Source of the DNA: Minisyncoccota bacterium
GTDB lineage: Bacteria; Patescibacteriota; Minisyncoccia; Phycocordibacterales; DASSSU01
Assembly: GCA_035708305.1 (NCBI GenBank)
Contig: DASSSU010000029.1
Span: 576 to 64,575, forward strand
Direction of reading: 5' to 3'
Length of the DNA: 64,000 nt
Shown: piece after piece, positions 2,330 through 63,920 of the stretch
Layout: every line of letters begins with the position of its first letter
How positions within the stretch are numbered: position 1 is the first letter of the stretch
Made by a program: the position numbers and the translations under genes
Notes under the pieces: generated by a model
Databases searched by the model: none
What the model saw: the letters and a program-made list of their open reading frames with translations, nothing else
Told to the model about the DNA's origin: nothing

Positions 2330-3897
<1,568 letters not shown>

Positions 3898-4711
3898 AAA
3901 TGGACACATTCTTCTTGCAAGGAAGAATTAAAACGATCGATCCATTCTGCATTTGTAGAGTGAGAGACATGGTTCAGTCTCAAAAAGAGCCGGGCATTCG
4001 GGAGAGACCGAAAACCAGACGGAACAAAAGAAAGAGAAACTTTGAAAGGCTATTCACATTCAATTTTCAAAATATGATTAACAAAAACCGCTTCGGCGGT
4101 TTTTGTTTTGGTGCAATTTCCTTTAAATGTTATAATGCCACCGGGTTTTCTTCAATGGATATTTTGAGAAGGATATTTGAAAGTGAACGGTGGTCATCTT
4201 GCTTATGGAGTTTCGATTTCGTTCGTGATTGGCACGATGCTCATGCTCATTCTTCTTGGTCGGTAGAAATCTTTTGGAGGGGAAAATGTTCCAGCGATTT
4301 TTTCGCTCTCAGTTTTTCCGTTCGTGTGTTCGGAATCCTGTTGAAATGATCACGTCAATTTTGCTGTGGTTGGCAGTGGTTTTTGTCGTTTATTTTTACC
4401 ACCATTGGTAAAAAATGGCCGCGAGATGTTTTCTCGCGGCCTTTCGTTTGACCTTTACTGGTGTTCTGGCCTTCTTTTGGAAGAATGTTTTCTCGATTTT
4501 TTTCCTCGAGGGTCTTGTGAGGGATTCCTTTTCTCTTTTTCTTTTTCCCGTTTATCACGATGTCTCTGAGACATGCATGGAGCTCCTAAAATGAAAAGTT
4601 CGCACTCTCTCACTGAGAGGCTCTTCTTTTGAGAGAACCCTGAGGAATTCTAATGAAAATCAGGTTAAAATACAAGTGAGAGCCCTCAGTGATGGCATTA
4701 TGAAGAAAAAC

Positions 4712-4739
4712 TTGACGGAATTTTTCTTTTCTATATAAT
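4712..4739 (+). promoter_or_regulatory. Near-consensus promoter inside the 16S-23S spacer (TTGACG, 16 nt, TATAAT)
   Basis: Read directly from sequence, about 240 nt upstream of the 23S 5' end; it is followed by a gatctttg boxA-like motif and a hairpin-T9 at 4814-4840. Confidence 0.45.
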
Positions 4740-4977
4740 GCTAAATGTTCTGAATATGAAAAAGAAAGAAAGCTTTCCAAGGTGATACAGTCCACGCAGG
4801 TGGATCTTTGTGTATCGCCTCAGGCGATTTTTTTTTAGAAAACTGCCCGAACGGATCGAACGTTGAAAACTGAATTCTGCCACGGCAAAAATTACCTTTC
4901 GGGGTCTTTTCATTTGCCGGAGGCAGGCAGGTAAAAAATATTGTAAGAAAATTTTGTGGTTTTTTGACTTCCTAATG

Positions 4978-7948
<2,971 letters not shown>

Positions 7949-10703: not shown

Positions 10704-11093
10704 CTATCGGAAAACGGAAAGAAAGCTTTTCCACCAGCTCTCTTTTTTGGGCGTCTCCTCGGGAGTGTTGGTGGCGGTCTTCTGGTCAACCAAGACTAGC
10801 ACATGCTCGCCGTCTTTGGCAACCATAAACTTTTTGCGAAGCTCGGCTTCTACGCCGCTTTTGGATTGCAAGTTGGTGATTTTTTGTTCAAGATCGTTCT
10901 GTTGTTGTGCGACACTGGCGAACTTTGCGGACGCGGCAAGCATTTTTTCTTTCGTATCCTGGTAATGCTCGTACATGTGCCAAACGACAGAAGTCATAAA
11001 AATGACAGCAAAAACCAGAAAAACGCCGGTGAATTTCGAAAAAAGCACTTTTTTCCACCCTGTTCGTTTTTGGCGATTTTGCAAACTTCGCAT
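10704..11093 (-). CDS. Septum formation initiator (FtsB/DivIC-like) protein
   Basis: N-terminal TM helix followed by a coiled-coil of about 129 aa. Confidence 0.5.
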   Translation of the reverse strand: MRSLQNRQKRTGWKKVLFSKFTGVFLVFAVIFMTSVVWHMYEHYQDTKEKMLAASAKFASVAQQQNDLEQKITNLQSKSGVEAELRKKFMVAKDGEHVLVLVDQKTATNTPEETPKKESWWKSFLSVFR

Positions 11094-12111: not shown

Positions 12112-13002
12112 ATGGAAACATCAAGAAAAATGAGGGTGATTACGCACAGCGGGCCTTTTCATACGGACGATGTATTTGCTGTCGCCTCGCTTGACCTGTT
12201 GCTTCAGGGGGATTATGAGTTAGTCCGAACTCGTGATCCGGAAGTGATCAAAACTGGAGATTTTGTTTTGGATGTCGGCGGGGTGTACGATCCGGAAAAA
12301 AATCTTTTTGATCACCATCAGGAAGGCGGCGCCGGAGAGCGGGATGGGATCCCGTACTCTTCACTTGGTTTAGTGTGGAAAAAATACGGGGCGGAAATTT
12401 GCCGTTCTCCAGAGGTAGCAAGAGAAATAGAAGACAAGCTTGTGTTGGCAACTGATGCGACGGATTGCGGGGTGGACATCATTCCCAAAAACGACCTCGG
12501 GGTGCACGTTCCACATATGTACGATGTGATCAAATCTTTCCGCCCTTCATGGAAAGAAGAGAAAAGTTTCGATGAAGGTTTTCAGGAAGCGCTTGCTTTT
12601 GCTAAGGGGTATCTTACGCGGAGTATTTTCTTGGCTCATACACTTTTGGAATCAAAAGAGAAAGTTTTGAGAGCGTATGAACAAGCTTCGGATAAACGGA
12701 TCGTGGTTTTTGAAAAATTTTACCCAAGCTTGGATGCACTCGAGAATTTTCCAGAAGTACTATATGTGGTGTATCCGTATTCTGGGAACCAGCATTGGGT
12801 TGCCCGGGCGTTTCGTAGCGAACGAGACAGTTTCAGGAATCGCAAAGATTTTCCAAAAGCATGGGCAGGAAAGACGAACGAAGAGCTTGCAAAAATTTCC
12901 GGTGTTTCAGACGCGATGTTTTGCCACAATGGTGTTTGGATCTGCTCGGCACGATCGAAGGAGGGGGCAATAGCACTGGCTACCCTCGCCGCTGACGCGT
13001 AA
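12112..13002 (+). CDS. MYG1/UPF0160 family metal-dependent hydrolase
   Basis: Conserved THSGPFHTDDVFA and DHHQ motifs. Confidence 0.75.
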   Translation: METSRKMRVITHSGPFHTDDVFAVASLDLLLQGDYELVRTRDPEVIKTGDFVLDVGGVYDPEKNLFDHHQEGGAGERDGIPYSSLGLVWKKYGAEICRSPEVAREIEDKLVLATDATDCGVDIIPKNDLGVHVPHMYDVIKSFRPSWKEEKSFDEGFQEALAFAKGYLTRSIFLAHTLLESKEKVLRAYEQASDKRIVVFEKFYPSLDALENFPEVLYVVYPYSGNQHWVARAFRSERDSFRNRKDFPKAWAGKTNEELAKISGVSDAMFCHNGVWICSARSKEGAIALATLAADA

Positions 13003-13116
13003 AAACGTTCATTTCTGGCACATTTCATCTTTTATTTTTGAATTCATCTGCCTGAGGCAGACTCACTTCGCAATTCCAAAAATAAACGCGAACTGCACTC
13101 AGAAATGAACGTTTTT
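13001..13116 (+). repeat. Family-A nested palindromic element (17-bp perfect outer inverted repeat, with an inner tctgcctgaggcaga hairpin core) starting in the stop codon of the MYG1 gene
   Basis: Outer arms aaaaacgttcatttctg and cagaaatgaacgttttt. A homologous empty copy lies at 46272-46341 on the minus strand. The 24-nt core ttcatctgcctgaggcagactcac is repeated at 29869-29892. Confidence 0.7.
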
Positions 13117-13267
13117 ATTTTTCAATACACTGGATGGGTTTTTTGGGAAAAACGTATTTTTACAAAAGGCACTGTCCCAAGGATGCTCGTCTGGTCTTGT
13201 GTCTTTTGTGAAGAAGTTTCTGGGAGGATATGGCTCTTTTTTGTAAATTGAGATAAGATATTTTCAA

Positions 13268-22798: not shown

Positions 22799-22826
22799 AA
22801 TGAGAAGCTTTTCTTTTCATGTTTGA

Positions 22827-22896
22827 GAAAGCCTTCGGAGTCATTCTTTTCTCGTGAAGTCCACAAACTTCGAAAAGAATGACTCCGAAGGCTTTC
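22827..22896 (+). repeat. Family-B palindromic element copy 1 (25-bp perfect inverted repeat around the conserved loop cgtgaagtccacaaacttcg)
   Basis: Arms gaaagccttcggagtcattcttttc and gaaaagaatgactccgaaggctttc, lying between the peptidase stop and tsaC. Confidence 0.7.
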
Positions 22897-22925
22897 TTGG
22901 ATAAAACGCTGATAAAAATAAAAAC

Positions 22926-23502: not shown

Positions 23503-23570
23503 AAAATCTCTCCGGTTGCCCTTTTTTCGTGAAGCCCACAAACTTCAAAAAGGACAACCAGAGAGATTTT
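23503..23570 (+). repeat. Family-B palindromic element copy 2 (imperfect ~24-bp inverted repeat around cgtgaagcccacaaacttca)
   Basis: Arms aaaatctctccggttgccctttttt and aaaaaggacaaccagagagatttt, with G-U-compatible mismatches; it starts 8 nt after the tsaC stop. Confidence 0.65.
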
Positions 23571-26890: not shown

Positions 26891-29815
26891 ATGAACGAAA
26901 TTTCAAATATCAAAAAAAGAGACGGAAGTACGGTTCCTTTTGATCCTCAAAAAATTTTTTCCGCGGTGAAAAAAGCCTTTTCTGGGGAAAATGTCAGTAT
27001 TTCATCGGCGGATCTCCACAAGATTACTGATACCGCTGTAGAGGAACTGAAAAAGCGGACGGAGAAGAATGAACCGGTAAGTGTAGAAAACGTTCAAGAC
27101 GTGGTGGAACAAACGCTCATGGAAGGAGGATATTTCAAAGTGGCAAAAGCGTATATTCTGTATCGCTACGAGCACAAAAAGGAGCGGGAAAAAGAAGTGG
27201 CGGAAAAAATTGAAGAAGAAACCTTGACCGTGACGAAGAGAAACGGCAAAAGGGAAATTTTTTCCATTGACAAGCTCCGCAATACACTCTTTTTCCACGT
27301 GAAGGGGTATGAAAACGTTATCGATGTGGACCGCGTGGTCGGACAATGCCGCAGTGAGGTGTATGACGGAATTCAGACAAAAGATGTCACGCGAGCTATT
27401 GTCATGGCGCTTCGTTCGATGATTGAGATCGATCCGGCGTATTCAAAGATTGCAGCACGGGTGCTCTCCAGTATCATTTTGAAGGAAGTTGCTGGTACCG
27501 ATGTGTTTGATCGTGGCAACATTGATCGCGAATACCGGGAAGTTTTTGTAAAAAACATCCATCGCGGGGTGGAAATGGGACGTTTGGATCGTCGTTTGCT
27601 CGAGTTTGACCTTCGTGCGATCAGCCAGGAGTTGGTGATCGGACGGGATGATCTTTTCGAATATCTCGGACTCCAGACACTCTACGACCGCTACTTTGTG
27701 CGTGATGACGACACCCGGCAGGTGCTTGAAACGGCGCAGATGTTTTGGATGCGCGTTGCCATGGGAACCGCGCTTTTGGAGAAGCCGGAGGAGCGCTTGC
27801 GGTGGACAAAAGAGTTTTATGAGATCATGTCGCTTTTGCACTACACGCCGTCGACCCCAACACTCTTCCACGCGGGAACACAGCAGCCGCAGCTTTCATC
27901 TTGCTACCTGAACACCGTGCCGGACTCACTTGACGCGATTTTCAAATCCTATGCCGACAACGCACAGCTTTCGAAGTGGTCCGGCGGTTTGGGCACAGAC
28001 TGGACCCCGCTTCGCGCAACCGGGGCGTTCATCAAGGGAACCGGCGTGGAGAGTCAGGGAGTTATTCCGTTTTTGAAGATTGCGAACGACGTGACGGTGG
28101 CGATCAACCGAAGTGGAAGGCGGCGTGGCGCGGCAGCAGTGTACTTGGAGGTATGGCATTACGATATCTTTGACTTTATCGAACTTCGCAAGAATACCGG
28201 TGATGAACGGCGCCGGACGCACGACATGGATACGGCTACCTGGATTCCGGATTTGTTCATGAAGCGAGTACGCGAAAAGAAAGACTGGACACTTTTCTCG
28301 CCGGACGAAACGCCAGAACTGCACAACATCTACGGCCGGGCTTTTGAAGAAAAATATGCAGAGTACGAGCGAAAGGCCGATCGCGGAGAAATGAAAGTTT
28401 GGAAGCGCATTCCTGCGGAAGATCTTTGGAAGAAAATGCTTGCCATGCTCTTTGAAACCGGCCACCCGTGGATGACCTGGAAAGATCCTTCCAACGTACG
28501 CTCTCCTCAGGATCATGTCGGCGTCGTGCACAACTCAAATCTCTGCACCGAGATCACACTCAACACTTCCGAGAATGAAACCGCTGTCTGCAACCTCGGT
28601 TCGCTCAACTTTGCAAAGTTTGTGGTAAACGGGGTTTTTGACAAAAACCTGGTGGGAAGTGTGGTGATGACCGCGATGCGTATGCTCGACAATGTGATCG
28701 ATATCAATTTCTATCCGACCGAAGATGCCAAGCGTTCCAACATGCAGCATCGTCCAGTGGGGCTTGGGATTCGCGGTTTTCAGGATGCGCTCTATCTTTT
28801 GGGAATTAATTTTGATTCCGAGAAATGCATTCAGTTTGCGGACGAAAGTATGGAAGTGGTGTCGTATTACGCGATTTTGGCTTCTTCTGGACTTGCCCGC
28901 GAGCGCGGTGCGTACAAAACCTTCAAGGGTTCCAAGTGGGACCGAAATATTTTCCCGCAGGACACGCTTGATTTGCTGGAAAAAGAACGTGGAGAAGTTA
29001 TTCCGGTTCCGCGAACGGGACGGCTGGACTGGGCGCCGGTACGCGAACACGTGCGCATGTATGGCATGAGAAATTCCAACTGTCTTGCGGTAGCACCAAC
29101 CGCAACGACTGCCAATATTGTGGGCTGTGTTCCGACCATTGAGCCGATTTACAAAAACATTTATGTGAAGTCCAACCAGGCGGGAGATTTCGTGGTGGTC
29201 AACTCTTATTTAGTGGAAGAGCTGAAGATGCGCCGCTTGTGGAACGAAAACATGCTTGCCAAGCTCAAGTACCATGACGGAAGCATTCAGGAGATCGAAG
29301 AAATCCCGAAAGACATCAAGGAAAAATACAAGGAAATCTTTGAGATTGATCCAAGCTGGCTGATCCGCAGTGCCGCTTCCCGTGGAAAGTGGATTGACCA
29401 AAGCCAATCGCTGAACATTTATTTCCGCGGTACATCCGGCAAGGAGCTTTCTCAGGTGTATTTCCTTGCCTGGGAAATGGGACTCAAGACTACGTATTAT
29501 CTCCGTACCCTCGGTGCTTCACAAGTGGAAAAGTCCACGGTGGACACGGGAAAGTTTGGGTCAACCCACCAGCGCAAAACTTTTTCTTCAAACGCCATCC
29601 CGTCTTCCTCCACAGAAATGGTAGAGAGGGTGATGAACGTGGAGTCAGTGGAAGTCAAGCCTGAGCCGGTAAAAACCACAGAAGGGCATCCGAGTCCATT
29701 CCCAAAAGAAGCTGTTTCTGTGTCCTATCCGGTGTCGGTTGGTGCAGCAGCTCAGCCGAAGTATAATCTGATACGGATTGGGGATGATACAGACTGCGAG
29801 GCCTGCCAAGCATAG
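26891..29815 (+). CDS. nrdA: Class Ia ribonucleoside-diphosphate reductase alpha subunit, with two N-terminal ATP-cone domains and a ~100-aa C-terminal extension ending in CEAC
   Basis: ATP-cone signatures appear twice (KRDGSTVPF, KRNGKREIF); the catalytic block is NLCTEI; nrdB is adjacent. Confidence 0.9.
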   Translation: MNEISNIKKRDGSTVPFDPQKIFSAVKKAFSGENVSISSADLHKITDTAVEELKKRTEKNEPVSVENVQDVVEQTLMEGGYFKVAKAYILYRYEHKKEREKEVAEKIEEETLTVTKRNGKREIFSIDKLRNTLFFHVKGYENVIDVDRVVGQCRSEVYDGIQTKDVTRAIVMALRSMIEIDPAYSKIAARVLSSIILKEVAGTDVFDRGNIDREYREVFVKNIHRGVEMGRLDRRLLEFDLRAISQELVIGRDDLFEYLGLQTLYDRYFVRDDDTRQVLETAQMFWMRVAMGTALLEKPEERLRWTKEFYEIMSLLHYTPSTPTLFHAGTQQPQLSSCYLNTVPDSLDAIFKSYADNAQLSKWSGGLGTDWTPLRATGAFIKGTGVESQGVIPFLKIANDVTVAINRSGRRRGAAAVYLEVWHYDIFDFIELRKNTGDERRRTHDMDTATWIPDLFMKRVREKKDWTLFSPDETPELHNIYGRAFEEKYAEYERKADRGEMKVWKRIPAEDLWKKMLAMLFETGHPWMTWKDPSNVRSPQDHVGVVHNSNLCTEITLNTSENETAVCNLGSLNFAKFVVNGVFDKNLVGSVVMTAMRMLDNVIDINFYPTEDAKRSNMQHRPVGLGIRGFQDALYLLGINFDSEKCIQFADESMEVVSYYAILASSGLARERGAYKTFKGSKWDRNIFPQDTLDLLEKERGEVIPVPRTGRLDWAPVREHVRMYGMRNSNCLAVAPTATTANIVGCVPTIEPIYKNIYVKSNQAGDFVVVNSYLVEELKMRRLWNENMLAKLKYHDGSIQEIEEIPKDIKEKYKEIFEIDPSWLIRSAASRGKWIDQSQSLNIYFRGTSGKELSQVYFLAWEMGLKTTYYLRTLGASQVEKSTVDTGKFGSTHQRKTFSSNAIPSSSTEMVERVMNVESVEVKPEPVKTTEGHPSPFPKEAVSVSYPVSVGAAAQPKYNLIRIGDDTDCEACQA

Positions 29816-29823
29816 CCTTAAAA

Positions 29824-29934
29824 CTTCCAGCTTTGGCGAATTTCTTTGTCAGAACGTGAATTTTCCTGTTCATCTGCCTGAGGCAGACTCACAGCCAAAT
29901 TCACGTTCTTCCTCAAACTTCATCCAAATCTGAA
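29824..29934 (+). repeat. Family-C framed palindromic element downstream of nrdA (conserved frame, with a 12-bp inverted-repeat insert carrying the Family-A core)
   Basis: Frame cttccagctttggcgaatttctttgt ... cttcatccaaatctgaaa. The insert gaacgtgaattt ... ttcatctgcctgaggcagactcac ... aaattcacgttc shares its core with the element at 13043-13066. Confidence 0.7.
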
Positions 29935-30003
29935 AGTTTTATTTTGCAAGATTCTGAAAGTAGTTGCATACACAATAAAAATTATTCATTCACACTTACA
30001 TCC

Positions 30004-31038
30004 ATGCCTATTAAACAAACAAACGAGCAAGTAGATATTAACAAGCGAAAGATCATCAACGGGGAAGACGCCGATGTGATGCAGCTTCACCCGATCAAGC
30101 ATAAGTTTGCTTGGGAGGCGTACAATACCGGCAATGCGAACCACTGGCTTCCGACGGAGATCGGCATGCAAAAAGACGTAGAGCAGTGGAGATCGCGCGA
30201 CGTACTTTCCGACGACGAACGTCAAGCATTTGAAACGGTCCTCGGCTTTTTCACCACGGCGGACTCGATTGCGGCAAATAACGTGGTTTTGGCGCTCTAC
30301 AAGCACATCACTTCACCGGAGTGCCGCATGTTTCTTTTGCGGCAGGGCTACGAAGAGGCAAACCACACGCACTCGTACCAGTACATCGTGGAGTCGCTCG
30401 GCATGGATGAAGGAAAAATTTTCAACATGTACCGCGAGGTGGAGGCGATCTACAACAAAGACAACCTTGTCCTCTCACTCAATGAAGGAATCTTTGATCC
30501 GAACTTCAAAACGGGAACATTTGAAAATGACCAGAAATTCTTGGAAAACCTTTGTGTTTTCTCGCTTATTCTCGAAGGAATTTTCTTCTACAGTTCGTTT
30601 GCCGTGATGTTTGGTTTTCAGCGGCAAAACAAGCTGGTGGGCGCTGCGGAGCAGATTCAGTACATCATGCGCGATGAATCCCAGCACCTGAACTTTGGTA
30701 TCAACATGATCAACACAATCAAAGAAGAGCAGCCGGAACTTTGGACGCCGGAATTCCAGCAAAAAATCATCGACCTGATCCGCCGCGGTGTGGTACTTGA
30801 GTACACGTTTGCACAGGAAGTTTTCCCGAAAGGAATTTTTGGCATGAACGCGGAAGGGTTCAAGCAGTACATTGAGTACATTGCAGATCGCCGATTGGAG
30901 CGTGTGGGCTTGCCGAAGCAGTACAATGTGACCAATCCGTTCCCGTGGATGTCGGAGGCGATTGACTTGTCGAAGGAAAAGAACTTCTTTGAGACGAGAG
31001 TGACCGAATATAAAGTCGGCGGCGCGTTGGAGTGGTAA
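30004..31038 (+). CDS. nrdB: Class Ia ribonucleotide reductase beta subunit (diiron/tyrosyl radical)
   Basis: Ferritin-like EANHTHSY and RDESQHLNF iron ligand motifs. Confidence 0.85.
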   Translation: MPIKQTNEQVDINKRKIINGEDADVMQLHPIKHKFAWEAYNTGNANHWLPTEIGMQKDVEQWRSRDVLSDDERQAFETVLGFFTTADSIAANNVVLALYKHITSPECRMFLLRQGYEEANHTHSYQYIVESLGMDEGKIFNMYREVEAIYNKDNLVLSLNEGIFDPNFKTGTFENDQKFLENLCVFSLILEGIFFYSSFAVMFGFQRQNKLVGAAEQIQYIMRDESQHLNFGINMINTIKEEQPELWTPEFQQKIIDLIRRGVVLEYTFAQEVFPKGIFGMNAEGFKQYIEYIADRRLERVGLPKQYNVTNPFPWMSEAIDLSKEKNFFETRVTEYKVGGALEW

Positions 31039-31041
31039 AAG

Positions 31042-31156
31042 CTTCCAGATTTGGCGAATATCTTTGTTGCGAGGCAAAGTGCTTGCTCACCTTACTTATC
31101 CGTAAGGCTCGCGGCGACACTTTGCTTCGCGCCTCGATCTTCATCCAAATCTGAAA
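31042..31156 (+). repeat. Family-C framed palindromic element downstream of nrdB (same frame as the nrdA copy, with an unrelated nested-hairpin insert)
   Basis: Frame cttccagatttggcgaatatctttgt ... tcttcatccaaatctgaaa. The insert has gcgaggcaaagtg/cactttgcttcgc and ccttac/gtaagg stems. Confidence 0.7.
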
Positions 31157-31302
31157 CCTTTTACTTTTGCAAAAATCTGGTTATAAATAAAAAACTCTAG
31201 GATTAGAGTTTTTTATTTTAGCGGGGAATTCCGAAAAAACCCTTTATTTTCAAGCAAAAACAGGGAAGAGAAGTTATCCACAGGTTTTCTTGGGGAAAAT
31301 GT

Positions 31303-31330
31303 TTGACAAGAAAATTAGAAAGCGTATACT
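31303..31330 (+). promoter_or_regulatory. Candidate promoter (TTGACA, 16 nt, TATACT) for the polysaccharide gene cluster
   Basis: Consensus-like hexamers; the ~165-nt leader contains a C8T9 homopolymer tract. Confidence 0.45.
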
Positions 31331-31499
31331 AATGGCAGTTCCATTCACTTGGATATCCCGTTCTTTTTTCCACCCCCACCACCACTCTAACCCCCCCCTT
31401 TTTTTTCTTTCCCCTTCAACATCATTTTTACATGGTGTTTTTTTGTGCTTGATTTTTGGATTGAGAGAGACCAGGCTCTATTGCGTGTTTTGGTAGCTC

Positions 31500-32867
31500 A
31501 TGTATCATAAAGCCATGCTGAACATGGGGAGGAAAGAGGCGGGAATCTTGTTTTTGGGCGATATTCTCATATACTTCGCCTCGCTTTGGATTGCACTTGC
31601 TCTCCGGCACTTGGCTGTCCCGACAGCAAATGTCTACCTCCTTCACCTGAAGCCTTTCCTCATTCTCTTTCTTATCTGGACCGTTGTTTTTTACATTTCC
31701 GGACTCTACGAAAAACATACCCTTGTTTTTAAGAGCAAGCTCCCATCGCTCATTTTTACTGCACAGGTGATAAACAGCCTTCTCGGTGTTTTGTTTTTCT
31801 ACCTCATTCCGGTTTTTTCGATTACGCCAAAAACCGTACTTTTTATCGACCTCGCTTTCACATTTGTCCTCCTTGTTTTTTGGCGGCTGTACCTTTCGGA
31901 GCGGGTGACGGCCACCAAAAGGCAAAACGCACTCCTCATCGGTTCCGGAGATGAAATGCAGGAGCTTTGGGAAGAGGTGAATCAAAATCCTCGCTATCGC
32001 TTCCGTTTTCTTTCTGCACTTGACCTTGACGCGATCGGCTCGGTAGATTTCAAAGGGGAGATCTTGGATAGGATTTATAGTGAAAAGATCACTATGATCG
32101 TGATTGATCTGAAAAATGAGAAATCCTTTCCCATTTTGCCACATCTCTACAACTTGCTTTTTTCGCGCGTCCACTTTTTTGACCTACATCGCGTGTATGA
32201 AGATATTTTTGACCGCGTACCGCTTTCGCTTGTGGGGTACAACTGGTTTTTGGAGAACATTTCTTCCGCTTCTAAAATTTCGTACGATATTCTTAAGCGG
32301 GCTATGGACATTGCGGCGGCACTTCTGCTCGGAATTCCTTCGCTGGTGTTTTATCCTTTCGTCTATTTGGCGATCAAGCTTGATGATGGCGGATCGGTGT
32401 TTTTGCATCAGGAGCGCGTGGGGAAAAACAATTCTTCTGTCTGGCTTTTGAAGTTCCGAACCATGACATTTGATGACAAAGGCAAGTGGGGAAAGAGCGG
32501 ACAGACAAACAAAGTCACCCGTGTAGGAGAGTTCTTACGCAAAAGTCGTATTGACGAACTGCCACAGCTGTGGAATGTGCTGAAAGGTGATATTTCTCTG
32601 ATCGGTCCGCGGCCGGAATTCCCGGATCCAGTGAGAGAATACGAAAGTAAGGTTCCGTACTACGGTGTGCGGCATCTTATCAAACCGGGACTCTCCGGCT
32701 GGGCGCAGGTGCATCACATGGAACATCCACATCATCAGCTTGATATGGAAGAAACGCGGCGCAAACTTTCATATGATCTCTATTACATCAAAAATCGCTC
32801 TCTGGTGCTTGATATCAAAACCGCGCTCATGACGGTGAGAATTATGCTCGCTCGAAGTGGAAGGTAA
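31500..32867 (+). CDS. Polyprenyl glycosylphosphotransferase (bacterial sugar transferase, WbaP/CpsE-like)
   Basis: N-terminal TM region; the C-terminal domain has [27 protein letters not shown] and similar motifs. Confidence 0.8.
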   Translation: [455 protein letters not shown]

Positions 32868-34759: not shown

Positions 34760-34830
34760 TGTATCTCCGATCAGCTTGGGAGGGAAGAATACTTCTTTTT
34801 TCTGTAAAAGTCAAATATTCTGGGAAATCA

Positions 34831-34886
34831 GGAAAATAGCTCCATGTCCTTTTCGAAGTTTGTGGGCTTCACGAGAGCTATTTTCC
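34831..34886 (-). repeat. Family-B palindromic element copy 3 (reverse orientation; conserved core cgtgaagcccacaaacttcgaaaaggaca)
   Basis: On the plus strand it reads ggaaaatagctc...cgaagtttgtgggcttcacg...gagctattttcc; the 12-bp outer inverted repeat differs from those of copies 1 and 2. Confidence 0.65.
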
Positions 34887-34935
34887 GATGGGGTGAATAA
34901 AAATTTTTCCGCAATACCGGAAAACATCTACACCT

Positions 34936-46087: not shown

Positions 46088-46271
46088 AATTTTAACGAGA
46101 CTACCATCCGGACCAGTCCATATTCTTCCCAAATCTTGAAAGGAATTTTGTTTACGAAAAATCCTGTTTTCTTTCAATCTAGCGCTCCAAGGCCGCTCGG
46201 CCGGTCTTACTGTCTTGAAGGAAAACAGGATTTCCCGCTTACGAACAAACTACTTCCAGTCTCTTGCAAAG

Positions 46272-46341
46272 AAAAAACACCCATTTCTGAGTGCAGTTTT
46301 CGCCTAAGAACGACGAAATGTGCCAGAAATGGGCGTTTTTT
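46272..46341 (-). repeat. Family-A element, the short 'empty' form, starting in the stop codon of rpmB
   Basis: Minus-strand sequence aaaaaacgcccatttctggcacatttcgtc...gcgaaaactgcactcagaaatgggtgtttttt; it aligns with both arms of the 13001-13116 copy, with compensatory stem changes. Confidence 0.7.
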
Positions 46342-46579
46342 AGATGAGGTTGGCTTTTTTGAGCGTTTTGTACGCTCCGTTCTTTTCCAAGGTCTTGAGA
46401 CCACTGGTGGAAAGAGACACCCGCACGCTCTTTTGAAGCTCAGGAACATACACCTTCTTCGTGATCATGTTTGGGCTTCGGCGGACTTTGCCAACCGGGT
46501 TGAACTTTGTGGCACGGGTGCGGTTGGAATACGCGCCTCCGACCTGAGTTCTTTTCTGGGTGATAGGACATTTTTTCAT
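46340..46579 (-). CDS. rpmB: 50S ribosomal protein L28
   Basis: MKKCPITQKRTQVG...NRTRATKFNPV signature. Confidence 0.8.
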   Translation of the reverse strand: MKKCPITQKRTQVGGAYSNRTRATKFNPVGKVRRSPNMITKKVYVPELQKSVRVSLSTSGLKTLEKNGAYKTLKKANLI

Positions 46580-61128: not shown

Positions 61129-61503
61129 GTGAGTGCTGTTTTAACATTGAATAATCTGAGAATCTTGTCCTCGTGTTGTTCTGGAAGACGCGTGGAAAGC
61201 AGGATTCTTACCCGAATATCAATATTTTATCGGATTTTTCTGAAGTTTTCCTGAAATTTTGTAAGAATTCCGTGTTTTTTCCGTCTCATGCGGTAGCGCA
61301 AAAGGGCGATCTTAATGCAGGAAAAACAGTCTGCCGTAAGATTACTCATATTTTGCCGGAGGTTTTTCAAAAAATCTCCCGAGTTCTTTCACAGTTTTTA
61401 GTTTCTAATCTTGTTCAGCAGCGAGAGGAATCTCTAAATGGCTTACCCATTTACTCGCGATATCAATGTTCTTGATCGCGGCTCAAATTCTTTGCGCATT
61501 GCC

Positions 61504-62622
61504 ATGGTCGCTCCTTTGGTAGAGAGCGTGCCGCCGAAGTATTATGGCGGAACGGAGCGAGTCATGGATTGGCTCATAAAAGCGCTTCTTCAAATGGGGC
61601 ATCGTATCACGCTTTTTGCGAGCGGTGATTCTGTTACTGGCGCAGAGCTTCATGCTTGTGTACCGAAAAATCTTCGCGAGATGTGGAAAGAAATTCCGGA
61701 TGATCAGAAACCGGAAGATTACGTCGCGTGGCAAAAGCGCTACACCAAGAAAATGCTTGACGATGTGTACCTCCTCGCCATGAATGGCGAGTTTGATGTT
61801 GTTCATTTAAATGTGGACGACCCATATGCGTTTGAGCTTTTCTCAGACACAAATCTTCCGTGCGCGGTTGTTATGACCATGCATGGTCGGCAGGATTATA
61901 AGTGGCTCCACGCTGCATACAGGAAGCATCCGCTTCCATTGGTATCAATTTCCAATAATCAGCGTGAGTTAATGGTTCCAAACGCCAACTGGGCAGGAAC
62001 CGTATACCATGGTTTGCCGGAGGATTTGTATCAAGTAGAAAATGCGGAGCAAGGTGAGTACTTGCTTTTCATTGGACGCACCAGTCCCGAAAAAGGACTG
62101 AAACAGGCGATAGAGATTGCCGTAAAGGCAAACATGGAGTTGAAGATTGTTGCGAAGATTGATCCAAGTGAGGAAGATTACTTTTGGAAGGAAATCCAAC
62201 CGCTAATTTTCGAAAACCATTCCCTGGTTAAATTCTGTGGTGAGAAGGGAGATGCTGAAAAGCAGGAACTTCTCTCTGGCGCACGGGCGCTTCTTTTCCC
62301 GATTTGTTGGCCCGAACCGTTTGGCCTTGTGATGATCGAAGCCATGGCTACCGGCCGGCCGGTGATTGCTTACCGGCATGGTTCTGTGCCGGAGGTTCTC
62401 CAACATGGAGAAACCGGATTTATCATCAAGGATGACGCGGAAGCTGCGGCTTTGTCGGTTGAGATGGCAAAGCACCTCAAACCCCAAAACATCCGTCGGA
62501 TTTTTAAAGATCGATTTTCCAATGTTCGTATGGCGGAAGGGTACGTGGAGATTTACAAAAAATTAATCTCCGAGAACCAAGTCGCAAGAAAGCCAAAAGC
62601 TTTCACCAAACTGGCAGGATAG
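61504..62622 (+). CDS. Glycosyltransferase family 4, tandem paralog 1
   Basis: MVAPLVESVPP..YGGTERV N-terminus and EPFGLVMIEAMATGRPV C-terminal GT-B motif; an in-frame upstream ATG at 61438 is less likely. Confidence 0.75.
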   Translation: MVAPLVESVPPKYYGGTERVMDWLIKALLQMGHRITLFASGDSVTGAELHACVPKNLREMWKEIPDDQKPEDYVAWQKRYTKKMLDDVYLLAMNGEFDVVHLNVDDPYAFELFSDTNLPCAVVMTMHGRQDYKWLHAAYRKHPLPLVSISNNQRELMVPNANWAGTVYHGLPEDLYQVENAEQGEYLLFIGRTSPEKGLKQAIEIAVKANMELKIVAKIDPSEEDYFWKEIQPLIFENHSLVKFCGEKGDAEKQELLSGARALLFPICWPEPFGLVMIEAMATGRPVIAYRHGSVPEVLQHGETGFIIKDDAEAAALSVEMAKHLKPQNIRRIFKDRFSNVRMAEGYVEIYKKLISENQVARKPKAFTKLAG

Positions 62623-62707: not shown

Positions 62708-62735
62708 TTTCCAATTTACTTTGATATGGTATAAT
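62708..62735 (+). promoter_or_regulatory. Candidate promoter with an extended -10 (TGgTATAAT) for GT4 paralog 2
   Basis: The tataat at 62730-62735 is preceded by tgg; the track ORF ATG at 62721 lies inside this promoter, so the real start is 62784. Confidence 0.35.
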
Positions 62736-62783
62736 CCACCTATCAATTTGTTCAATCACAAAAATATCAAGCTCCGTATCGCC

Positions 62784-63920
62784 ATGGTTGCTCCTTTGGT
62801 AGAGAGCGTACCGCCGCAGCTTTATGGCGGAACTGAGCGGTTTGTGGCCTGGCTGGTAAATGCTCTTGTTGCCATGGGGCACGATGTGACTCTCTTTGCG
62901 AGCGGAGATTCACAAACTTCCGCCCGTCTTCACAAGTGTTCGCCGAAAAACCTTCGTCGTATGTACGAAGATCTCAAGGAAAAGCCTGCTGACTATATCG
63001 CATGGCAGAAACAAGCGACTCATGCGATGCTTCAGGAAGTCTTTAAGCACGTCATGAACGGCGAGTTTGATATTGTTCACTTAAATGTGGATGATCCCGA
63101 GGCTTTCAGACTCTTTTCTTCAAAAGAACTTCCATGTCCGGTGGTGATGACCATGCACGGACGCTTGGATCTTGAAGGATTGCGGGCAGCGTATCAGGAA
63201 CATCCGCTTCCGTTGGTTTCCATTTCGAACGATCAGCGGACGCATTTTAAAATGTCCAACGCCAACTGGGCGGGCACGGTATACCACGGCCTACCGGAAG
63301 ATCTCTATCAGCTGGAAAACGAAACACTGGGGGACTACTTGCTTTTCATCGGAAGAGTGAGCAGGGAAAAAGGATTGGAGAGTGCGATTCGGATTGCTGG
63401 TGAAGCGCACATTCCTCTGAAAATCATTGCCAAGATCGACCCGACGGATCGGGAGTATTATCGGGAGAAAATACATCCTCTCATTTTCGGCAATTCGAAT
63501 ATCGAGTTTGTTGGTGAGAAAAACGACCAAGAAAAACAGAAGTACTTGAACAGAGCACGTGCACTTATCTTTCCGATCAACTGGCCGGAACCGTTTGGCC
63601 TGGTGATGATCGAAGCCATGGCTACCGGCCGGCCGGTAGTCGCCTTTGGGTGTGGTTCTGTTCCAGAAGTATTGAAGCACGGTGAGACTGGCTTTGTGGT
63701 AGAAAAAGAAAATTACGAAGACAAAATCCGTGAGGCGATTCACTTTGTAAATGCCTGCAAAAATCTTTCTCCTCAAAAGATCCGCAAAATTTTTCTCAGA
63801 GATTTCACGGCAAAAAAAATGGCGGAAGGATACGTGGAGATTTATCAAAAACTTTGGCAAGAACGCAGAGCAGGACAAAAAACGCAGAACTTGTGGATGA
63901 AAAAAGGAAAAATTGTATAA
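62784..63920 (+). CDS. Glycosyltransferase family 4, tandem paralog 2
   Basis: It has the same architecture as paralog 1, and stretches of near-identical nucleotide sequence (for example ccgtttggcctggtgatgatcgaagccatggctaccggccggccgg). Confidence 0.75.
   Translation: MVAPLVESVPPQLYGGTERFVAWLVNALVAMGHDVTLFASGDSQTSARLHKCSPKNLRRMYEDLKEKPADYIAWQKQATHAMLQEVFKHVMNGEFDIVHLNVDDPEAFRLFSSKELPCPVVMTMHGRLDLEGLRAAYQEHPLPLVSISNDQRTHFKMSNANWAGTVYHGLPEDLYQLENETLGDYLLFIGRVSREKGLESAIRIAGEAHIPLKIIAKIDPTDREYYREKIHPLIFGNSNIEFVGEKNDQEKQKYLNRARALIFPINWPEPFGLVMIEAMATGRPVVAFGCGSVPEVLKHGETGFVVEKENYEDKIREAIHFVNACKNLSPQKIRKIFLRDFTAKKMAEGYVEIYQKLWQERRAGQKTQNLWMKKGKIV

Follow-up and report, generated by a model that had tools for sequence, protein, structure and literature searches.

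In a 64-kb piece of the genome of a Minisyncoccota bacterium, two unrelated genes, MYG1 and the ribosomal protein gene rpmB (L28), end in stop codons inside which the same palindromic sequence begins. The locus raises the question of what this sequence is, whether it has been kept as RNA structure or as DNA sequence, and how it came to stand behind both genes. The window in what follows is the whole stretch of DNA that was analysed, 64,000 nucleotides. An earlier note made from the letters of the window had taken the two copies, here called family A, for a nested structured element under selection at the RNA level, distinct from a generic terminator and perhaps belonging to a MITE-like family. 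The window carries an rRNA operon, the 16S gene of which is of CPR type in that it has a mismatch at a primer site and a hairpin insertion of 124 nt. Family A is flanked by ordinary housekeeping genes, namely MYG1, gatB, rpmB, rpmJ and one with a SET domain.

Two copies of family A

The two copies described in the earlier note, one starting in the stop codon of MYG1 and the other in that of L28, were both present. Their parts are as follows.

13001-13116, plus strand: family A copy 1, 3' of MYG1; hairpin of -35.6 kcal/mol, z = -6.1
13001-13009, plus strand: A-tract and outer stem of copy 1
13010-13026, plus strand (copy 1), and 46331-46315, minus strand (copy 2): left arm CATTTCTGGCACATTTC
13030-13086, plus strand: nested palindromic insert in the loop of copy 1, 57 nt, with stems TTTATTTTTGAATT / AATTCCAAAAATAAA
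13043-13066, plus strand: core-1 hairpin TTCATCTGCCTGAGGCAGACTCAC in copy 1, 24 nt
13091-13107, plus strand (copy 1), and 46298-46282, minus strand (copy 2): right arm AACTGCACTCAGAAATG
13108-13116, plus strand: outer stem and T-tract of copy 1, T-rich on to ~13124
46272-46341, minus strand: family A copy 2, the minimal 70-nt form, 3' of rpmB (L28); hairpin of -34.9 kcal/mol, z = -8.4

The A-tract of copy 1 opens with the final AA of the MYG1 stop codon (TAA, 13000-13002). Copy 2 was placed between the convergent genes rpmB and rpmJ and overlaps rpmB (46340-46579, minus strand) by 2 nt, the stop codon of the latter being TTA at 46340-46342 on the plus strand. Both 17-nt arms were exactly identical in the two copies, and when the left arm was searched for with up to 2 mismatches, exactly 2 matches were obtained in the window against 0.02 expected (100 shuffles). 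The loop of copy 1 contained the extra insert that had been reported for it, and copy 2 was without it. Core-1, within the insert, had an exact second match at 29869-29892, also as reported, where 0 were expected by chance; the match to this region widened to 43 nt at 81% identity. Since both copies were reproduced base for base in two independent Logan contigs of the same organism (L001 and L169), family A is no assembly artefact.

Search for further copies

One genome per GTDB species (185,579 representatives) was scanned for the exact arms. The 96 loci returned comprised a single real CPR-type copy (L056) and about 21 members of a palindrome family of Microbacteriaceae, the rest being chance matches. 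The L056 copy was a 120-nt element directly 3' of the rpmB stop codon, with arms 17/17 and 16/17 identical to those of the window, the same bulge and internal loop, and an unrelated loop and outer stem. Its loop held a canonical GC-rich terminator (AAAAAGCCCGC...GCGGGCTTTTT). The L28 proteins of L056 and of the window were identical in roughly half of their residues (alignment judged by eye). The label Saccharibacteria attached to L056 is doubtful; because the relatives of its L28 are labelled Paceibacterota or Kaiserbacteria, L056 is probably also a member of the Paceibacteria.

Apart from L056, the search for copies that had been proposed in the earlier note was negative. Viral contigs (IMG/VR) gave 57 and 13 loci with the exact left and right arms, none of them a copy, and the 43 loci found with the exact right arm among JGI metagenome contigs were all chance matches in coding DNA. 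Covariance model R1, run with filters off on the window and on the fetched loci of relatives, recovered plain terminators and no further copies. In the genome, viral and metagenome scans there was no locus with two arms at the spacing of an insertion sequence, and the window and the fetched loci showed neither a transposase nor a parent element whose ends match. Scanning of the whole window at Rfam gathering thresholds returned rRNA and tRNA genes only, and Rfam E-value scans of both family A loci and of one Microbacterium copy returned weak generic hairpin matches only. Mimicry of rRNA by the arms, conceived as a means of L28 autoregulation, was considered and rejected (one 9-mer match against ~0.5 expected). 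Nothing relevant to palindromic repeats or MITEs in CPR bacteria was found in the searchable literature. Family A is very low-copy and rare: exact matching gave 2 copies in the 64 kb and a single one in the L056 MAG.

Structure and covariation of the hairpin

Both copies were folded, as the earlier note had suggested, and gave the long hairpins listed above; the z-scores compare folding with shuffled sequence. Paired cells amounted to 98.6% in the three-copy alignment, from which the layers of the element could be read. Outermost is a locus-specific stem of at most 10 bp, in which, in the window, the 5' A-tract pairs with the 3' T-tract. Next inward, (T/C)(T/C)CATTTCTG is paired with CAGAAATG(A/G)(A/G), giving a 10-bp terminal inverted repeat that is extended by imperfect subterminal arms. 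Further inward, GCA is paired with TGC (TGT in L056) beside a 3-nt ACT bulge, and after a CA/AC internal loop the innermost stem is made by TTTC and GAA(A). The bulge and the internal loop are formed by the differences of the right arm from the left. The loop that closes the structure measured 13 nt in copy 2, ~65 nt in copy 1 and ~72 nt in L056.

The left arm was invariant in 3/3 known copies. The termini (TT/AA in two copies, CC/GG in one) were less conserved than the subterminal arms, which is the reverse of typical transposon ends and counts against insertion of a module. The flanking dinucleotides (CG/CG, CG/TG and AT/AT in the three copies) are palindromic and could come from a 2-bp target duplication or simply from an extension of the stem, three known copies being too few to fix the junction rules of family A.

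The earlier note had pointed to a common frame with compensatory differences in the outer stem, and these were confirmed (CGTT...AACG in copy 1 and CGCC...GGTG in copy 2). Its deduction that such changes betray selection on RNA structure was not supported as argued. All of the covarying (two-sided) pairs, 8/8, lay in the outermost 10 bp of the three-copy alignment; across two genomes no variation in sequence was seen in the 13 inner pairs, in the ACU bulge, which is unpaired, or in the CA/AC internal loop, TGT for TGC in L056 aside. The covariation test that the note had recommended made no case for RNA over DNA, the covarying pairs being confined to the flanks. This pattern suggests an invariant module set in locus-specific palindromic flanks, which fits the invariance of the arms better than RNA-level covariation does. 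Because arms and bulge are invariant and only the flanking stem and the content of the loop vary, insertion of a module is the preferred reading.

Terminator layout

Both copies have the layout of an intrinsic terminator, with a start in the stop codon, a stable stem-loop and a U-tract directly after it (CGTTTTTATTTTT in copy 1 and TGTTTTTTCTTT in copy 2). Their stems are much longer and more interrupted than those of canonical terminators, and a simple terminator scan gives no score to stems of this kind. The plain bidirectional terminators of this genome, which R1 also picks up, have the same order of A-tract, stem and T-tract. Because the layout of family A matches theirs, termination is its most likely activity, a prediction from the sequence. 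The claim that the element is not a generic terminator is therefore to be divided: its repeated, modular hairpin-within-hairpin build does set it apart, and its A-tract, stem and T-tract do not.

Other modules of like build

Four further modules belonging to two other families, B and C, were delimited in the window.

29815-29945, plus strand: family B copy 1, after nrdA; frame at 29824-29849 and 29918-29935
31036-31165, plus strand: family B copy 2, after nrdB; frame at 31042-31067 and 31139-31156
13117-13267, plus strand: family C module, first copy; core CCAAGGATGCTCGTCTGGTCTT at 13177-13198
46100-46271, plus strand: family C module, second copy; core at 46187-46208 within a hairpin at 46156-46236

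The family B copies are 1.2 kb apart in a single operon (nrdA, nrdB) and share one frame, different from that of family A, which in copy 1 encloses an inner palindrome and core-1 (29869-29892) and in copy 2 an unrelated nested interior; their outermost pairs differ compensatorily. Family C (~150 nt; core CCAAGG..GCTCG..GGTCTT) adjoins the T-tract end of both family A copies, and its first copy takes up the remainder of the MYG1-gatB spacer. The CCAAGG module was considered as SRP RNA or another known ncRNA and was rejected, as it had no Rfam support. A further core, core-2 (TCGTGAAGYCCACAAACTTCRAAAAG), tops three otherwise unique palindromes (22826-22897, 23503-23570 and 34830-34890), the first of which has a perfect stem of 26/26 bp.

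Similar constructions were met in L168, the rpmB-rpmJ spacer of which contains two palindromes (-60 and -81 kcal/mol) with the common core GAGCGGTA-N8-TACCGTGA, as well as a 21-nt match to a family B arm at a non-orthologous site. In these other module families, here and in L168, a shared module either surrounds an interior particular to the locus or lies within an outer stem that is. Viral contigs searched with core-1, core-2 and the family C motifs gave 0, 0 and 5 matches, the 5 by chance. No transposase was found by Pfam scan among 10 ORFs flanking the modules.

Empty sites in relatives

In locus L217, where MYG1 is 61% identical with the same C-terminus and the order holin-MYG1-gatB is kept, the stop codon of MYG1 is separated from the start of gatB by 9 nt (GCTTAAAATGTTTTTATG), as against 265 nt in the window. 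When the flanks of the window element were joined with one CG kept, the result was TAAAAACGTTTTTAT, close to the TAAAATGTTTTTAT of L217. L227 was also without the element.

For the L056 site, five loci (L213, L215 and L223-225) have the order S12-M50-L28/Lactamase_B as in L056, with L28 84-89% identical to that of L056, and in them L28 runs 8 nt into the convergent Lactamase_B gene. Just a small plain terminator stands behind L28 in L214 and L226. The closest relative of the window organism, L168 (L28 78% identical, same SET-L28 order), is without family A and has plain terminators behind rpmB, and L228 likewise has a plain terminator behind rpmB and no family A. Since relatives of both genomes have empty sites, family A appears to have been gained in both lineages rather than inherited from a common ancestor. 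Nested insertion of a MITE-like family, as the earlier note had put it, is supported in so far as empty sites exist at both loci and more module families were found; a large MITE family this is not, the copy number being very low.

Origin and function of family A

The explanation that we propose, with about even confidence, takes family A for a small palindromic DNA module of low copy number that measures ~70 nt at its minimum, is gained 3' of stop codons, forms a putative bidirectional terminator and bears nested modules in its loop. To judge from the relatives, the module would be gained, probably by insertion, immediately 3' of stop codons, entering in the middle of short palindromes made of A-tract and T-tract or of stop-codon sequence, or in the loops of hairpins. 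Palindromic repeats are known insertion targets (PMC1525189). Together with its complementary flanks the module would form a long hairpin between A-tract and T-tract, which from its anatomy could serve as a bidirectional intrinsic terminator and could stabilise the 3' end of the gene upstream. Further small palindromes would then be taken in by the module's loop, such as the core-1 module in copy 1 and the GC-rich terminator hairpin in L056. Some enzyme would move the modules, and the compensatory changes would then be largely derived from the flanks or from template switching. Two of the three copies stand behind one gene, rpmB, which random insertion does not predict and which counts against insertion.

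The family A copies could instead be ordinary lineage-specific intrinsic terminators with no dedicated mobility, their sequence shared through duplication of 3' regions or through homogenisation between quasi-palindromes by recombination or template switching. Template-switch repair of quasi-palindromes makes paired, seemingly compensatory changes in one step. The order of A-tract, stem and T-tract seen in the plain terminators of this genome agrees with such an origin, as does the spacing of the family B copies within the nrdA-nrdB operon, which is what local duplication gives. It is harder to reconcile with family A copies 33 kb apart behind unrelated genes, with a near-identical copy in a different lineage (L056) whose closer relatives have empty sites, and with the family B arm at a non-orthologous site in L168. 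We regard it as unlikely.

If the element were a conserved structured RNA of the 3' UTR, such as a signal for protein binding or processing linked to rpmB expression, its arms would be kept by RNA function and the MYG1 copy would be a secondary duplicate. The two copies directly behind rpmB in two lineages speak for this, and all three copies have the same orientation relative to the upstream gene. An unpaired bulge and internal loop are conserved, and both single-base differences give G.U pairs in the sense strand. However, no element was found behind rpmB in the closer relatives examined (L168, L228, L213-215 and L223-226), and with a canonical terminator between the arms of L056 most sense transcripts would stop short of the right arm. 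The arms show no mimicry of 23S, 16S or 5S rRNA and belong to no Rfam family. The strand preference of folding is mixed, copy 2 folding better in sense and copy 1, against expectation for such an RNA, in antisense. Taken together, we consider a functional 3' UTR RNA quite improbable.

A DNA recognition site (operator, uptake signal or recombination site) common to Microbacteriaceae via the same or a related binding protein would be in keeping with arms conserved as sequence beyond structure, and with the 19-mer TTCATTTCTGGCACATTTC forming the arm of a 52-nt perfect palindrome present several times per genome in Microbacterium and Frigoribacterium, but it is very improbable. An uptake signal would be much more frequent than the 2 exact matches in the 64 kb of the window and the single one in the L056 MAG, every copy stands at the 3' end of a gene and none in a promoter, and no candidate binding protein was found.

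Significance

The genomes of CPR bacteria (Patescibacteria) are small and compact and are considered to contain little mobile DNA, and their non-coding regions have received almost no study. If small modules are gained and nested at the centres of hairpins in these genomes, terminators could be acquired ready-made and be able to split an operon. The MYG1-gatB junction would be an example, the two genes being 9 nt apart in L217 and separated in the window by a 265-nt insert with a strong hairpin. In practice such modules would also cause breaks when CPR metagenomes are assembled, and the arm shared with Microbacteriaceae might serve to trace DNA that passes between CPR bacteria and their potential hosts. 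Should the modules be lineage-specific terminators and no more, there is nothing unusual in the finding.

A broader account can be imagined, in which miniature mobile elements seek out hairpin apexes, terminators in compact CPR genomes are built by nested insertion, modules are exchanged horizontally among CPR lineages and possibly with Microbacteriaceae, and the 3' end of rpmB is a preferred site. We think this account quite improbable as a whole. Were exchange with Microbacteriaceae part of it, the shared arm would be a molecular trace of a host-epibiont relationship.

Comparison with known systems

A counterpart in sequence was the Microbacteriaceae palindrome recovered in the genome scan. 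It is a perfect palindrome of 52 nt, CTT CATTTCTGGCACATTTC N18 GAAATGTGCCAGAAATG AAG, found several times per genome right after stop codons, with its ~21 loci in Microbacterium and Frigoribacterium genomes of 69% GC. Its 19-nt left arm is identical to that of family A, its conserved block ends inward at the same point, and it too is palindromic and stands after stop codons. It differs in having no bulge or internal loop, in its fixed 18-nt spacer, in its several copies per genome and in its high-GC actinobacterial hosts. The CPR right arm corresponds to the perfect arm of Microbacteriaceae with a TG-to-AC change and an ACT insertion. Homology of the two, which we incline somewhat to accept on these likenesses, is only plausible because the 17-mer was itself the search query, so that what counts independently comes down to 2 nt of identity, the palindromic setting and the location. 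The Microbacterium element gave nothing similar in BLAST searches of phage and plasmid collections.

Terminal inverted repeats and a length of 70-130 nt are features that bacterial MITEs such as the Correia elements of Neisseria have in common with family A, along with intergenic position, possible action as terminators and long RNA hairpins. Correia elements have a TA target duplication, and in family A a 2-bp palindromic duplication is possible. As in MITEs, terminal inverted repeats and empty sites in relatives were found for family A; no parent element was. Unlike MITEs, family A has an interior that is unrelated between copies and termini that are less conserved than the subterminal arms; its flanks are inverted complements over at most 10 bp, its copy number is very low and a parent insertion sequence was not found.

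Paired DNA-uptake sequences of Neisseria and Pasteurellaceae form terminators in which the arms are conserved in sequence and the loops vary, at ~1 per kb genome-wide. They resemble family A in that conservation of the arms is explained without RNA selection, but family A is far too rare. The small dispersed repeats (SDR) of Nostoc, which Elhai et al. reportedly described in 2008, are said to be very small palindromes of 21-27 nt, abundant, nested in one another and lying within larger hairpin contexts. Family A differs from them in phylum and in its unrelated sequence, and the modules found here, 24-70 nt long, are few in number and keep to the 3' ends of genes, next to A/T tracts. Integron attC sites were rejected, as the ends AAAAACG / CGTTTTT do not fit RYYYAAC / GTTRRRY.

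REP and BIME sequences of Proteobacteria are repetitive extragenic palindromes mobilised by RAYT transposases; they are thought to terminate transcription or stabilise mRNA, join into mosaic hairpins and act as insertion targets (PMC3733652, PMC1525189, PMC3116915). An unpaired GTAG or CGTC tag is found at one end of the REP palindrome (PMC3733652). Like family A, REP/BIME are imperfect palindromes of small size that lie 3' of genes, whether the neighbouring ORFs are convergent or co-directional. Membership of family A in REP was rejected, its ends being AAAAACG(TT/CC)CATTTCTG or TAGGAATTTCATTTCTG, with no GTAG/CGTC at either. REP sequences are present in hundreds per genome, whereas family A has 2 copies in the 64 kb of the window, where no RAYT gene was seen and the 10 ORFs scanned beside the modules included no transposase; the conserved block of family A, unlike that of REP, is a 17-19-nt arm with a fixed bulge, around a variable interior of up to 77 nt. 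In its apparent way of working family A resembles REP/BIME, bacterial MITEs and the nested SDR of Nostoc. We count it as a rare and new family within a known kind, the MITE/REP-like small palindromes of intergenic DNA that would form terminators, in a phylum for which the searchable literature describes no such elements; it is not a new kind of system.

Further palindromic modules

Beside family A, the palindromic terminator-like element that follows MYG1 and rpmB, the window carries further modules, as listed here.

Palindromic modules of the window
29815-29945 and 31036-31165, family B, two copies that share a second hairpin frame
13117-13267 and 46100-46271, family C, a repeated intergenic module of ~150 nt
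22826-22897, 23503-23570 and 34830-34890, long palindromes with core-2 (TCGTGAAGYCCACAAACTTCRAAAAG) at the apex

Each family B copy starts within a stop codon, one in that of nrdA and the other in that of nrdB, and both are framed by the arms TTCCAGNTTTGGCGAATNTCTTTGT and CTTCATCCAAATCTGAAA. Compensatory differences were found between the copies in the outermost pairs, and their nested interiors are unrelated to each other. The palindromes built on core-2 are otherwise unique, one of them having a perfect 26-bp stem. The 460-nt non-coding stretch 3' of nrdB also holds long C- and T-homopolymer-rich tracts at 31290-31500 (ccacccccaccaccactctaaccccccccttttttttctttcccc).

Family C has the core CCAAGGnnGCTCGnnnGGTCTT, within which lies a mini-hairpin, GG(CC/AT)-GCTC-(GG/GT)C(C/T), and comparison of the two copies shows covariation in its pairs. 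Both family A copies adjoin family C at their T-tract end, in opposite relative orientation. Family C had no match in Rfam; may it serve as a promoter, a leader or a small RNA?

Modules in the closest relative

In L168, to which the window organism is most closely related, the rpmB-rpmJ spacer contains two very long nested palindromes.

Palindromes of the L168 rpmB-rpmJ spacer
6380-6480 and 6550-6680, −60 and −81 kcal/mol

Both carry the apical core GAGCGGTA-N8-TACCGTGA, which is their own. The architecture is therefore lineage-wide while the modules differ. A 21-nt match to a family B arm was located at L168 6456-6476, a non-orthologous site.

L169, a Logan contig of the window organism, stops 150 nt past rpmB, within the family C hairpin, and L216, from a relative, stops 180 nt past MYG1. 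The Logan short-read assemblies of both organisms break within repeat-rich spacers, which fits with more module copies elsewhere in the genomes.

Ribosomal RNA operon and tandem genes

Other features of the window
3418-3541, hairpin insertion of 124 nt (−53 kcal/mol) inside the 16S rRNA gene (2331-3899)
3900-4974, 16S-23S spacer of about 1.07 kb
61438-62622 and 62721-63920, tandem paralogous genes of 394 and 399 aa

The insertion lengthens a helix of the 16S close to the GGAGGAAGG region and has no sequence in common with the other modules. The 515F site of this 16S reads GTGCCAGCAGCAGCGGTAA, and at the 3' end GGATTTATTCC stands where GGATCACCTCCTT is usual. The spacer lacks a tRNA gene; a 149-aa ORF within it (3900-4349) had no Pfam match. 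DNA identity between the tandem paralogues is 72–77% across repeated stretches.

Matches to family A arms outside the lineage

A phage contig (L157, about 10815-10837, − strand) has the 23-mer GCGAAAACTGCACTCAGAAATGG, which equals the right arm of the family A copy after rpmB; a divergent gene has its ribosome-binding site ~15 nt away. The JGI entry L174 is the same contig. No left arm was found beside the 23-mer, which may be a chance match or a stray module.

A multicopy family of AT-rich, 52-nt perfect palindromes was found in the high-GC Microbacteriaceae (Microbacterium, Frigoribacterium).

Microbacteriaceae palindrome copies
L005, 3454-3505
L069, 5844-5895 and 7867-7918
also in L010, L028, L062 and others

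This palindrome was absent from Rfam and from the phage and plasmid collections. Its copies lie directly 3' of stop codons, and it has a 19-nt arm in common with family A.
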